Origin: Gemmatimonadota bacterium
Lineage (GTDB): Bacteria; Gemmatimonadota; Gemmatimonadetes; Gemmatimonadales; GWC2-71-9
DNA length: 64,000 bases
Direction: 5' to 3'
Assembly: GCA_003223395.1 (NCBI GenBank)
Contig: QHUZ01000034.1
Coordinates: 78,930-142,929 of the forward strand
Made by a program: the position numbers and the translations under genes. Shown here in pieces: positions 27,915 through 32,137 of the stretch. Below the pieces are notes generated by a model. The model was not told the DNA's origin. It searched no databases and worked only from the letters and a program-made list of their open reading frames with translations. The number at the start of each line of letters is the position of its first letter. The stretch's first letter is position 1.

Positions 27915-28259
27915 GTGAATCTCGAAGATCGCCGCCGATACTTAGAGCACGCCCGGCAGCTGTTCAACACCGGAGAGTATTGGTTAGCGCACGAAGCGCT
28001 GGAAACAGTCTGGCGTTCTATTATTAAGGAAGACGAAGCGCTCGTGTGGCAGGGCCTCATTCAGGCCGCCGCCGCGCTGCTGCACCGGGCCCGCGGGAAC
28101 CGCCATGGCACCGTCGTCGTTGGAGCGGCGGCGCTGGGAAAACTGGCCGGGCCACAACGACCCGACATCGAGTTCGAAACCGTGGATTTTCGCGCGCATC
28201 TGGCGCGTGCCCTGGCGGGGGAGGGTGATCCTCCGCGACTGGAATTCCGGGACGCATGA
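27915..28259 (+). CDS. DUF309 family protein
   Basis: GTG start. ARQLFNTGEYWLAHEALETVW matches the FNxGxYxEAHExLExxW pattern I recall for DUF309. Confidence 0.65.
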   Translation: MNLEDRRRYLEHARQLFNTGEYWLAHEALETVWRSIIKEDEALVWQGLIQAAAALLHRARGNRHGTVVVGAAALGKLAGPQRPDIEFETVDFRAHLARALAGEGDPPRLEFRDA

Positions 28260-29227
28260 CGAACCGCACCGCACGCATGTATGACGTGATCATCGTTGGC
28301 GCAGGGCCGGCCGGGCTCTGCGCCGCGCTGTACGCCGGCCGTGGCATGCTCAACGCGGTCACGATCGAGCGCGGCGCGCCGGGTGGTGAGCTCCTCAATA
28401 CCGATCTCATCGAGGACTACATCGGCTTCGAGAGCATCAAGGGTTGGGAGCTCGCGCAGAAGATGAGCGAGCACGCGACAAAGTTCGGCGCCCAGATCGT
28501 GACCGACACCGTCGAGCGAATCACGAAGGACGCCGATGGCTGGTTCGATGTGCAGACGGCCCGCGGCGACACCTACCGCAGCCAGGCCGTGATCCTCACG
28601 GCGGGCGGCACACCGGTCAAGCTGGGAGTGCCGGGCGAAAAGGAGTTTGCGGGAAAGGGTGTGTCGTACTGCGCGGTGTGCGACGGCGCGTTCTTCAAGG
28701 GTGAGCGCCTCGCCGTCGTGGGGGGCGGCGACGCCGCCGTCGAGGAAGCCGATTATCTCACGCGCTACGCGAGCAAAGTGCACCTCGTGCACCGCCGCGA
28801 TGAATTCCGCGCCTCCAGGCTGCTGCAGGAGCGCGCCTTTGCGAATCCGAAGATCGAGGTCATCCGAAACACCGTGGTGCCCGAGATCGTCGGCAATACG
28901 AAGGGTGTCACGCACGCCGTGCTCGAAGACACCGCCACAGGTGAGCGCTCCAATCTCGATGTCGGCGGAGTGTTCATCTTCGCGGGATTCAAGCCCAATA
29001 CGCAGCTGGTCGAGGGCCACGTGGACCACGACGCCGGTGGGTATCTGATCACCGACAACCGCATGATGACGTCGATGGCGGGCCTGTTCGCCGCGGGTGA
29101 CGTGCGCAGCCAGGTCACCCGGCAGATTACGACCGCGGTCGGGGACGCGACCACCGCGGCGATCGCGGTCGAGAAGTACCTCAAGTCGCTGCACGAACAG
29201 CGGGGCGACGGCAAAGGCAAGCGGTGA
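28256..29227 (+). CDS. trxB: thioredoxin-disulfide reductase
   Basis: YDVIIVGAGPAGLCAALYA, the redox-active CAVCDG, and a second Rossmann segment VVGGGDAAVEEA. ATGA overlap with the upstream gene. Confidence 0.92.
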   Translation: MTNRTARMYDVIIVGAGPAGLCAALYAGRGMLNAVTIERGAPGGELLNTDLIEDYIGFESIKGWELAQKMSEHATKFGAQIVTDTVERITKDADGWFDVQTARGDTYRSQAVILTAGGTPVKLGVPGEKEFAGKGVSYCAVCDGAFFKGERLAVVGGGDAAVEEADYLTRYASKVHLVHRRDEFRASRLLQERAFANPKIEVIRNTVVPEIVGNTKGVTHAVLEDTATGERSNLDVGGVFIFAGFKPNTQLVEGHVDHDAGGYLITDNRMMTSMAGLFAAGDVRSQVTRQITTAVGDATTAAIAVEKYLKSLHEQRGDGKGKR

Positions 29228-29865
29228 AGATCGTTCAGATTCCCAACGGCGTATTCGCGGAGAACTGCTATCTCGTGGTTGACGAGCGAGCCGGCGAGTG
29301 CGCGATTGTCGATCCGGGCGAAGAGGCCGGATTGATCCTCCACAAGGTCAAGGAAACAGGCACGAAGCCGGTTGCCATTTGGCTGACGCACGCGCATCTC
29401 GACCACGTCCTCGGCGTGTCGCGAGTCGCGGCGGACACGGGGGCCCCCGTCTGGCTCCATCCCGCCGACCGGCCGCTCTATGACGCGGTGCCCGACCAGG
29501 CCGCGTGGTTTGGGCTCGCGCCCCCCGAACCGTTGCCGGCGCCTGACCAGGAGCTGGCCCACGGTGCACGCTTGACGGTCGGCGATGTGAGCTTCGAGGT
29601 TCGGCACGCGCCCGGGCACTCGCCGGGGAGCGTCTGCCTGGTGGGGCCGGGCGTCGCGCTGAGCGGTGATGTCCTGTTCGCCGGCTCGATCGGCCGAACC
29701 GACCTTCCTGGCGGTGACTTCGAGACCCTGATCGCCAGTATCGAGCGCGAGTTGCTCCCGCTTCCCGATGATACCATCCTCTACAGTGGACATGGACCCG
29801 AAACGACCATCGGACGGGAGCGCCACACCAATCCCTTCCTCACCGGCGTCTACCGGATCGGCTAA
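29224..29865 (+). CDS. MBL-fold metallo-hydrolase (glyoxalase II-like)
   Basis: WLTHAHLDHV (HxHxDH motif), 213 aa. GTGA overlap with the trxB stop. Confidence 0.85.
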   Translation: MKIVQIPNGVFAENCYLVVDERAGECAIVDPGEEAGLILHKVKETGTKPVAIWLTHAHLDHVLGVSRVAADTGAPVWLHPADRPLYDAVPDQAAWFGLAPPEPLPAPDQELAHGARLTVGDVSFEVRHAPGHSPGSVCLVGPGVALSGDVLFAGSIGRTDLPGGDFETLIASIERELLPLPDDTILYSGHGPETTIGRERHTNPFLTGVYRIG

Positions 29866-29980
29866 GCCGCGGCCGCGGTGCCTGCGGTGCGGCGCCGAGG
29901 TGCAGCCGAAACCGTGGGGCTGCAAGAATCCCTGCGCGAATTGCGGGTTTCTCTATCCGCTCGGCGACTGCTCCGATTGA
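29864..29980 (+). CDS. Cys-rich zinc-ribbon-like mini-protein frame; start codon unresolved
   Basis: The frame reads KPRPRCLRCGAEVQPKPWGCKNPCANCGFLYPLGDCSD. Hand-counted GC3 is 27/33 here versus 20/34 in the alternative frame. Its TGA overlaps TTG 29977 of the next gene (TTGA). The only canonical start is ATG 29792, well inside the MBL gene. Confidence 0.4.
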   Translation, partial: KPRPRCLRCGAEVQPKPWGCKNPCANCGFLYPLGDCSD

Positions 29981-30843
29981 ATCACGTTCTCGCCATTCTG
30001 CTGCTGGCCATTGACTGCGTCGCGCGCGCGTGGCGCATTCAGCTCGCCAGCTGGGCGGCCGGCGGCCGGCTCGAGTTTCGCGACGCCCTGCGGCTGAACC
30101 TGTATGGCGAGGCGGCTTCCACGTTCACGCCCAATCGGCTGGGAGGGGAGCCCGCGCGGTTCCTCGGGATGACGTGGTCTGGGCTCCGCGTGGTGACGGG
30201 GCTGGTGGCGCTCGGCGTGGAGGTCGCGGCCGAATGGCCGGTGTTCGGCATCATCGCACTCGCGCTCGCCGCGTACTACGTGCCCGATTGGAGCGAGGCC
30301 GCAGACCGGTTCCTGTCTCACAGCCTGGCCCGCGACTTGTTGGGGATCGAGCTCATCGTCCTCGTGATGCTGATCGTCATCTGGACGCTGCAGCGCCTGG
30401 TGCGGCCCGGAGCCATCCGGCATCGCGTGCGGCGGCAATGGCGCGTGGCGCTCGCCCACGTCCGGCGCGCGCCGTGGTGGGTCCTGTTCGCGGGCGCGTT
30501 GCTCACCGTCATCAGCCTCGCCGCGCGCGCGCTGATCTTGCCGGCACTCGTCTGGGGTCACCCCAACGCGCCGCCCTTCAGCGTAATGTTCTTCGGTTCG
30601 CTGGCGCTGCTCCATGCGCCTCTCGTCGTACCGCTCCCGTCCGGCGGCGGCGGAATCGAGGTCGCGTTCCTGTCGGGATTCGCCGGCGAATTCGGTGCGG
30701 GTCATCAAGTGATGATGCTGCTCCAGTGGCGTTTCTACACGACGATTCTGTTGACGGTGCTCGGGATGTATCTGCTCGTGCGGACGCACGGCGTGCGGGC
30801 GGCGAAGGACTTGTTTACCGTCGGATGGTTCCGGCGGCGCTAG
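29977..30843 (+). CDS. flippase-like / UPF0104 (lysyl-PG synthase TM region-like) membrane protein
   Basis: LNLYGEAASTFTPNRLGGEPARF resembles the UPF0104 core motif, and the protein is multi-TM. Start taken at TTG 29977 (MNHVLAILLLAI...). GTG 29878 is the ORF-track alternative, but that extension has poor GC3. Confidence 0.6.
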   Translation: MNHVLAILLLAIDCVARAWRIQLASWAAGGRLEFRDALRLNLYGEAASTFTPNRLGGEPARFLGMTWSGLRVVTGLVALGVEVAAEWPVFGIIALALAAYYVPDWSEAADRFLSHSLARDLLGIELIVLVMLIVIWTLQRLVRPGAIRHRVRRQWRVALAHVRRAPWWVLFAGALLTVISLAARALILPALVWGHPNAPPFSVMFFGSLALLHAPLVVPLPSGGGGIEVAFLSGFAGEFGAGHQVMMLLQWRFYTTILLTVLGMYLLVRTHGVRAAKDLFTVGWFRRR

Positions 30844-30932
30844 CGAGGACACACCCGATGGGCGATTCTTGGCTCGATACCGACGGCGGCCGAACTGAGG
30901 GAGGCGTGGTGGCGGCAGTGAATCAGACACGG

Positions 30933-32137
30933 ATGGAACGTGATCCGTTGGGAGAGATGCCCGTGCCGGCCGAGGCGCCGTGGGGCATCCAGACCGAGCG
31001 CGCACGGCAGAGGCCGGTGCCGGTACCTCGCACAACATGAATTGCAACGAGGTGCTCGCGAACCGCGCCAACGAGTTGCTGGGAGGGAAGCGGGGCGAGT
31101 ACAAGCCGGTCCATCCGAACGATCACGTCAACATGGCGCAGTCGACGAACGACGTGATTCCCACTGCGATCCGCCTCGGTGCGCTGTTACAGCTGGCGGC
31201 GCTGACCGAATCGCTCACCCGTCTCGCGCGGGCATTCGCGGCAAAGGGCAAGGAGTTCGACTCGATTGTGAAGTCGGGCCGCACCCACCTCCAGGATGCG
31301 ACGCCGATCCGGCTCGGCCAGGAGTTCGCGGCGTACGGGCACACCGTCGAGCGCAACCGCGATCGGATCGTGCGCACGGCCGACGATCTCCGCGATCTGG
31401 GAATCGGCGGCACGGCGGTCGGCACCGGGCTGAACGCCGAGCCGCAATATCCGGCATTGATGGTCAAGCACCTGCGCGCGATGACGAAACTCGAGCTGCG
31501 GGAAGGAAAGGATCGCGTGCAGCTCATGCAGTCGATGGGTGACGCGACGGCACTCTCGGGCGCCGTCCGCACCTATGCCGCCGACCTCGGCAAGATCGCG
31601 AGTGACCTGCGGCTGCTGGCGTCTGGGCCACGCACCGGTCTCGCGGAGATCGTGTTGCCGGCGGTGCAGCCGGGCTCGAGTATCATGCCCGGGAAAGTGA
31701 ATCCCTCGATTCCCGAAATGGTGAATCAGGTCTGCTTCCAGGTGATTGGGAACGACGTGACCGTAACCGCCGCCGCCGAGGCAGGACAACTCGAGCTGAA
31801 CGTGATGATGCCGGTCATCGCGCACAATCTGCTGTTCTCCATGACCATCCTCACCACTGCGACGCGTGTGTTGGCGGAGCGATCGGTGGACGGCATCACG
31901 GCCGACGCGGCGCAGGCGGCGCACTGGCTCGAGCGCAGTCCGGCGCTCGTGACGGCGCTCGCGCCGAAGATCGGGTACGCCGAAGCGGCGAAACTGGCGA
32001 AGGAAGCCGTGGCGAAGAACGTCACCGTGCGCCAACTGGTGATGGAGAAAGGGCTGTTGAAGGGCAAGGAGCTGGACGAGGTGCTCGACTTGCGGGCAAT
32101 GACGGAGCTGGGGGTGCCGGGCGAGCGGGAGAAGTGA
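30933..32137 (+). pseudogene. aspA: aspartate ammonia-lyase (class II fumarase/aspartase family) with an internal out-of-frame deletion
   Basis: Frame 0 reads MERDPLGEMPVPAEAPWGIQTERA, an AspA N-terminus, then stops at 31040. Frame 2, from about 31005, reads AGAGTSHNMNCNEVLAN...HPNDHVNMAQSTNDV...GSSIMPGKVNPSIPEMVNQVCFQVIGND. About 70 residues that normally lie between these blocks are absent. Confidence 0.7.

Follow-up and report, generated by a model that had tools for sequence, protein, structure and literature searches.

Gene order around the six-cysteine frame

The locus described here lies in a 64,000-nucleotide (nt) stretch of the genome of a Gemmatimonadota bacterium (assembly GCA_003223395.1, contig QHUZ01000034.1, positions 78,930 to 142,929 of the forward strand), which we call the window. 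Within it, a small cysteine-rich reading frame sits between a gene for a metallo-β-lactamase (MBL)-fold hydrolase and a gene for a membrane protein. An earlier reading of this DNA, made from its letters alone (the sequence-only reading), had described the frame as zinc-ribbon-like and coding, with no usable start codon. Comparison with relatives indicates that the small gene is probably translated from an ATG inside the MBL gene, so that the two genes would overlap by 74 nt. The features of the locus, in window coordinates, are as follows.

28256..29227, + strand: trxB-type thioredoxin-disulfide reductase (Pfam Pyr_redox_2, E 3.9e-46; CAVCDG motif)
29224..29865, + strand: MBL-fold hydrolase, YcbL/TTHA1623 glyoxalase-II-like, 213 amino acids (aa) (Pfam Lactamase_B, E 3.7e-30)
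29792..29980, + strand: small zinc-ribbon-like protein gene, 62 codons plus TGA, predicted product MDPKRPSDGSATPIPSSPASTGSAKPRPRCLRCGAEVQPKPWGCKNPCANCGFLYPLGDCSD; +1 frame open from the ATG to the first core cysteine (Cys1)
29792..29794, + strand: proposed start ATG, with AT from the end of the His190 codon CAT and G from the start of the Gly191 codon GGA
29792..29865, + strand: putative dual-coding overlap, 74 nt, MBL C-terminus in frame 0 and N-terminal leader of the small protein in frame +1
29866..29878, + strand: spacer of 13 nt, from the MBL stop to the codon for Cys1, read in the Cys frame only (…KPRPR), lacking ATG, GTG and TTG
29879..29977, + strand: conserved core of 33 residues; its six Cys follow the pattern C-x2-C-x10-C-x3-C-x2-C-x8-C, with two CxxCG knuckles
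29977..30843, + strand: LPG_synthase_TM-family membrane protein (Pfam E 4.7e-20), likely start TTG 29977

The MBL gene ends with TAA at 29863-29865, and its Gly189, His190 and Gly191 codons occupy 29788-29796. The stop of trxB and the start of the MBL gene share a 4-nt junction (GTGA). The translated hydrolase contains THAHLDH, the HxHxDH metal motif of MBL hydrolases. The positions that the sequence-only reading gave for the MBL stop, for ATG 29792 and ATG 29768, for GTG 29878, for TTG 29977 and for TGA 29978-29980 are all correct.

Conservation of the Cys-rich frame

Downstream of the MBL stop the Cys frame reads KPRPRCLRCGAEVQPKPWGCKNPCANCGFLYPLGDCSD and terminates at TGA 29978-29980. The codons ahead of Cys1 (29879-29881) are AAG CCG CGG CCG CGG, so the earlier statement that ATG, GTG and TTG are absent between the MBL stop and Cys1 is accurate. 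The predicted protein has the two CxxC motifs of the sequence-only reading. That reading counted three further Cys; there are two, for a total of six. The third-position guanine-cytosine (GC) content of the Cys frame over 29866-29977 is 0.84, against 0.62 and 0.61 in the other two frames, and neighbouring genes lie at 0.80-0.87.

Relatives of the core, whose consensus is C-x2-CG…GCKNPC-x-NCG-x2-YPLGDCSD, are numerous. A protein search returned 10 clusters that share the core and differ in their N-termini, with lengths of 42-72 aa; since this search missed the many fused proteins, its short list does not show that gene callers seldom predict the gene. When one genome per species was scanned for the core pattern, at least 321 genomes proved to encode a relative; the 80 loci kept all come from Gemmatimonadota metagenome-assembled genomes. 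A metagenome scan added at least 482 stretches with the core, and phmmer, run exhaustively against 1.84 billion representative proteins, gave 56 clusters at 50% identity.

Among 138 non-identical DNA versions, the core is exactly 33 codons long every time, with zero indels. The C-L-R-C-G and C-A-N-C-G knuckles are invariant, and 20 of the 34 core positions (33 codons and the stop) hold a single residue in at least 98% of sequences. Nineteen of these 20 positions still vary synonymously, and toggling between TGC and TGT is seen at all six Cys. The rival frame from GTG 29878 is interrupted by a stop within the core stretch in 74 of the 138 relatives. Since the core lacks indels and its invariant residues vary synonymously, the Cys-rich frame is, on this pattern of substitution, a real gene under purifying selection, with a signal that greatly exceeds chance. 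The preference of the sequence-only reading for this frame over that of GTG 29878 is thus upheld by both third-position GC and conservation, and the change that it said would speak against it, relatives that keep the 29878 frame and break the Cys frame, was not seen.

The list of open reading frames (ORFs) for the window instead extends the membrane-protein gene from GTG 29878 through the small gene. Neither the 62-aa nor the 70-aa form of the window product has an exact match on record in a very large gene-position collection. This suggests that the small gene is often overlooked by annotation in this clade.

At 29931-29957 the coding sequence of the small gene contains a hairpin that resembles a terminator (CCTGCGCGAATTGCGGG, then TTTCTCTATC). 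One such hairpin was found where shuffled sequences give 0.5, and it is probably a chance occurrence.

Three layouts of hydrolase and ribbon

The MBL and ribbon modules occur in three arrangements. In the fused layout the ribbon is in frame at the C-terminus of the hydrolase (…NPFVKLQPGINA-CLRCG…). When one fused ORF was used as a query, all of its 120 best matches were proteins of 220-251 aa with a C-terminal ribbon, and 119 of them covered 99-100% of the query. In the separate layout (L001-L006) the ribbon starts at an ATG or GTG of its own, at or after the MBL stop. The third layout, which we call overlap-type, is that of the window and is found at 99-101 non-identical loci. Here the ribbon is always in the +1 frame relative to the MBL gene and the spacer lacks a canonical start. 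Measured from the start of the MBL stop codon, the Cys1 codon lies 4 to 46 nt downstream in these relatives, with spacings that differ only by multiples of three.

All three layouts keep the order trxB, MBL, ribbon. A gene with the CxxCDG motif of thioredoxin reductase lies immediately 5' of the MBL gene at 87 of 87 overlap-type, 23 of 23 fused and 4 of 5 separate-type loci, and an MBL gene directly precedes the ribbon at every Gemmatimonadota locus examined. On the 3' side the neighbour varies: a GT4 glycosyltransferase at some loci, and an LPG_synthase_TM protein, fumC or small unknown ORFs at others, so that the MBL gene is the partner that stays constant.

More distant relatives within the ribbon family (C..CG…C..CG..YP.GDCSD; P0181 and P0157) are found in phage-like or mobile-element-like contexts that lack an MBL gene. 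Their loci are listed here.

L167, 3001-3147: distant ribbon; nearby are small ORFs in runs and an SLT lytic transglycosylase
L168, 3001-3204: distant ribbon, surrounded by a 1770-aa protein and a DUF6011 protein
L169, 695-898: distant ribbon, with the same surroundings as L168

Selection on an ATG within the MBL gene

Three canonical starts lie upstream in the Cys frame of the window: ATG 29792, GTG 29786 and ATG 29768. The sequence-only reading had found both ATG codons and took them to be the only ones, overlooking the GTG. The equivalent of ATG 29792 is the sole in-frame canonical start common to all overlap-type loci, and it falls within the MBL motif GHGP. The ATG requires the His190 codon to be CAT, and it is CAT at every one of the 99-101 overlap-type loci. 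The same His is encoded by CAC in 31 of 34 fused genes and at 4 of 8 separate-type loci. Four separate-type loci have CAT: L001, plus three window-like loci with an extra ATG in the spacer.

Codon changes were counted by parsimony after 101 overlap-type MBL genes, with a median nucleotide distance of 0.35, had been placed on a neighbour-joining tree. The His190 column shows no change between CAC and CAT on this tree, against 10-21 changes in each of six other conserved His columns. The Gly191 column, which supplies the third base of the ATG, shows one change, against 18-34 at other Gly columns. Its codon is GGA at 96 of 99 overlap-type loci, contrary to the GC bias of the genomes. The Glu three codons past His190 is GAA in 81 of 84 cases, and the other Glu columns strongly favour GAG.

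The sequence around the ATG also differs from the rest of the gene. In overlap-type loci, a 51-nt segment centred on the ATG has a mean predicted folding energy of -9.9 kcal/mol, against -18.3 gene-wide, and a GC content of 0.60, against about 0.72. Fused genes show no such dip at the same codon (-19.5 against -19.9 kcal/mol; GC 0.73). From the ATG to the NPF motif, four-fold degenerate sites of overlap-type genes average 7.8 changes, compared with 21.9 upstream (Mann-Whitney p = 4e-5), a rate about 2.8-fold lower. The same columns in fused genes are not reduced (10.0 against 7.4 changes, p = 0.8).

Openness of the +1 frame is likewise retained. It is open from the ATG to Cys1 at 99 of 99 overlap-type loci, over 12 distinct distances that differ by multiples of three (75-117 nt in the relatives). 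The clearest case is the Leu that follows NPF. It is encoded by CTC or CTT at 97 of 97 overlap-type loci, and the next codon begins with A at 94 of 97. CTG, CTA, TTG and TTA, which would create TGA or TAA in the +1 frame, never occur at this Leu. At the corresponding site in fused genes, GTG-A produces a +1 TGA in 14 of 34. The ATG, its context and the openness of the +1 frame are thus, by comparison between layouts, under selection specific to the overlap layout.

Some further observations concern this region. Low synonymous variation extends about 60 nt 5' of ATG 29792, where GAG TTG (29749-29754, MBL codons 176-177) shows no changes among 101 overlap-type sequences, and an ATC and a TAC codon show one change each. 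This stretch may belong to the small gene's initiation region. No promoter-like motif emerged from a sigma-70 scan of 29100-30100. A candidate internal promoter giving a leaderless mRNA (TTGCTC…TACAGT) was rejected because its spacer would be 24 nt.

Two database proteins also touch on the start. The homologue P0143 was called by at least one gene caller from the homologous ATG (MDRRRPLDES…); its 3' end is chimeric (…SEEHTSELQSRLHLVCRLLLEKKK). P0131 (216 aa) follows the MBL frame to GHGPETTV and then runs in the +1 frame into the ribbon. Its N-terminus is garbled, and it probably derives from an error-ridden contig.

Probable initiation at the internal ATG

We consider it likely that translation of the small gene starts at ATG 29792, giving a 62-aa product and an overlap of 74 nt. 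The protein would consist of a 29-residue low-complexity leader followed by the 33-residue six-Cys core. Such an arrangement would most likely have arisen when the spacer that held the original start disappeared and an ATG available within the MBL gene took over. Selection would since have retained the adopted ATG. The stop of the small gene, which overlaps the TTG of the next gene (TTGA), would fit translational coupling. That ribosomes initiate at ATG 29792 is what we infer from these comparisons, and the earlier description of the frame as having no usable start codon was too strong, because the ATG inside the MBL gene appears usable and selected.

Several points weigh against this interpretation. 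The prior is adverse, since co-directional overlaps that exceed 60 nt are usually annotation errors (PMC2478687). No Shine-Dalgarno (SD)-like motif lies 5' of ATG 29792; its absence is uninformative, because none precedes trxB, the MBL gene or the membrane-protein gene either. The overlap-type loci may form one clade, in which case the layout could be a single event. The argument accordingly rests on retention of the ATG amid saturated neighbouring synonymous sites, not on repeated origin. GTG 29786 and ATG 29768 could give products of 64 or 70 aa. Their equivalents are present in just 14 and 24 of 99 relatives, respectively, and we therefore propose a product of 62 aa and an overlap of 74 nt. 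Finally, an AlphaFold model of a fused orthologue has only moderate confidence over the ribbon, with a predicted local distance difference test (pLDDT) score of 53-80 and few assigned strands; the MBL domain scores above 90.

The sequence-only reading had listed three ways to account for the frame, a long overlap, initiation at a non-canonical codon, or a +1 shift out of the MBL frame, and the comparative data select the overlap from ATG 29792. Programmed +1 frameshifting near the end or stop of the MBL gene would produce an MBL–zinc-ribbon fusion like that of sister lineages. The ribbon is indeed always exactly +1 to the MBL gene behind a spacer that lacks a start, a fusion product would be functional given how common in-frame fusions are among relatives, and the NPF-Leu stretch (CCC TTC CTC) is nearly invariant in DNA. 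No shift site is conserved, however. The last sense codon varies (GCC, GGC, GTC, CGC, TCC, CCC, AGC and others), the MBL stop is TAA at 41, TAG at 27 and TGA at 11 loci and moves by up to 42 nt, and no GGAGG-like or other SD-like stimulator lies near it. A shift near the stop would also fail to explain why CAT/ATG is invariant about 70 nt upstream, why A-rich codons follow it, why structure and GC dip at the ATG and why synonymous constraint begins there. That the +1 frame is kept open 5' of the MBL stop counts against a shift at the stop itself. We regard frameshifting in place of initiation as very unlikely. Equally improbable, in our estimate, is a combination of the two, in which the majority of ribosomes produce the free 62-aa protein from the ATG and a regulated fraction of ribosomes shifts +1 in the last MBL codons to make the fusion. 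If it were true, one trxB-linked locus would yield a free hydrolase, a free ribbon and a fused enzyme.

Slightly less credible still is non-canonical initiation, or termination-reinitiation, within the 13-nt spacer, which would give a product of about 34-38 aa and no overlap. Relatives of the separate type do make short forms, such as the 42-aa P0001 (MAAAKPVPTC…), and stop-start coupling is common in this operon, as at the GTGA junction of trxB with the MBL gene and the TTGA junction of the ribbon with the membrane-protein gene. The spacer of the window nevertheless holds no near-cognate start codon, and CTG, ATT, ATC, ATA and ACG are all absent from the spacer at 78 of 99 overlap-type loci. 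Cys1 is invariant as a residue yet toggles between TGC and TGT, which places the start upstream of it. Initiation in the spacer also gives no account of the selection on the upstream ATG or of the frame and stop-avoidance constraints within the MBL gene. The remaining explanation treats the +1 offset as a sequencing or assembly error, or as a recent pseudogenising frameshift in a once fused or separate gene. A frameshifting deletion of about 190 nt in the nearby fumC gene of the window and the error-ridden read-through protein P0131 could be cited for it. This explanation is effectively refuted by the comparisons, as the same +1 layout recurs at about 100 non-identical loci from independent assemblies, and the core is still under strong purifying selection.

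The ribbon and its hydrolase partner

Searches of the ribbon against Pfam, NCBIfam, PHROGs and PDB sequences gave nothing above threshold. The matches below threshold were all weak and to generic zinc ribbons (DUF5637, RpoP, L40e, HVO_2753_ZBP and the LapB C-terminus). Membership of Pfam DUF5637 was rejected, with scores of 14.7-16.2 bits against a gathering threshold of 31.3 and 10 of 11 members matching only below threshold. The sequence does hold the two CxxC(G) knuckles of zinc-ribbon or rubredoxin-like proteins, which would provide four potential ligands, and from this pattern the core is predicted to bind metal. A literature search on the module in Gemmatimonadota found no description of the ribbon family or of its layout.

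The nearest solved structures to the modelled fused orthologue (P0011) are TTHA1623 (2zwr, 50% identity) and YcbL (2xf4), with BLEG-1 and S. aureus GloB among the further matches. A fold search of the PDB with this model returned MBL enzymes only and gave no functional clue for the ribbon. Since the two modules are fused in many lineages and adjacent otherwise, the ribbon may well work physically with the MBL protein as a partner module. The constant presence of trxB beside them is a hint of thiol or redox chemistry.

Junctions and genes downstream

The TTG at 29977-29979 overlaps the TGA of the small gene. Five relatives have an in-frame stop directly 5' of this TTG, and others have an ATG at the same place that gives MNHLL. 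These comparisons support TTG 29977 as the start of the membrane protein, in line with the earlier suggestion that it begins there with MNHVL. No recognisable SD sequence was found upstream of trxB, the MBL gene, the small gene or the membrane-protein gene (28230-28255, 29198-29223, 29766-29791 and 29951-29976, respectively). The two 4-nt junctions (GTGA and TTGA) and the starts that lack an SD sequence suggest that coupling or SD-independent initiation operates in this organism.

A sub-clade departs from this junction. In L034, L037, L043, L048, L059 and L064 the small gene ends with GAT TAA and ATT replaces the TTG (GATTAATCA); L056, of the same sub-clade, has ACT in its place. Alternative in-frame starts are a TTG at +22 in L043 and L056 and a GTG at +19 in L034. 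The nearest canonical start, upstream or downstream, is at least 64 nt away in L037, L059 and L064. This suggests that the LPG_synthase_TM protein of the sub-clade starts at ATT (or CTG) or has a shorter N-terminus.

Further downstream, fumC (class II fumarase, window 30930-32137) is broken near 31011. One frame holds the first ~30 codons (…RMERDPLGEMPVPAEAPWGIQTERARQ), which lead into nonsense, and a different frame holds the remainder (from …EAGAGTSHNMNCNEV). Four close relatives have about 189-190 nt at the junction that are absent from the window, and the junction shows CAG microhomology. The window copy is either a pseudogene or an assembly artefact.

Comparison with known systems

A survey of 715 co-directional overlaps of more than 60 nt judged none of them real, and the longest that it did accept was 56 nt, between holD and rimI of Enterobacteria (Pallejà et al., PMC2478687). 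The locus described here resembles holD/rimI in its +1 phase, in the start of the downstream gene inside the upstream gene on the same strand, in the conservation of the overlap across species and in an origin explained by relocation of the start. In the standard model for the origin of overlaps, the original start is lost and a start within the neighbouring gene is adopted (PMC3887535). Unlike holD/rimI, the window overlap is 74 nt instead of 56 nt, its start lies on the His of a conserved GHG motif, and the same modules are also found fused and separate in relatives. From glyoxalase II enzymes, we take this His to be a metal ligand.

The other obvious comparison is with prfB, which encodes RF2. 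There, too, a downstream +1 segment with no start of its own directly follows an in-frame stop, and other organisms have unshifted versions. Unlike prfB, the window locus lacks a conserved slippery codon and stop context as well as an SD-like stimulator, and it has a conserved, selected ATG upstream in the +1 frame.

In its two CxxCG knuckles about 16 residues apart and its length of 30-40 residues, the ribbon is like those of L40e, RpoP, the HVO_2753 type and DUF5637. Two further Cys and a distinctive YPLGDCSD tail, all invariant, set it apart from these small zinc ribbons, as does its position, which is always next to or fused with an MBL hydrolase at the Gemmatimonadota loci examined. YcbL and TTHA1623 are matched in sequence and predicted fold by the upstream gene, as well as by the first 210 residues of the fused orthologues. 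The solved relatives of this group lack a C-terminal Cys-rich ribbon, and the best of them align with about 205-209 of the 247 residues of the model.

Taken as proposed, this locus would be an evolutionarily stable same-strand overlap of 74 nt, exceeding the 56-nt maximum of the survey (PMC2478687). A single base choice, CAT and not CAC, would serve two proteins, with the start of one placed on the conserved GHG His of its neighbour. Relatives with the fused or the separate layout supply internal controls for the overlap layout. It is this combination of a long overlap, a start on a conserved GHG-motif His and control layouts that is unusual. The fused, separate and overlapping forms together point to a partnership between a six-Cys ribbon and a YcbL-type hydrolase, beside a thioredoxin reductase, across Gemmatimonadota.

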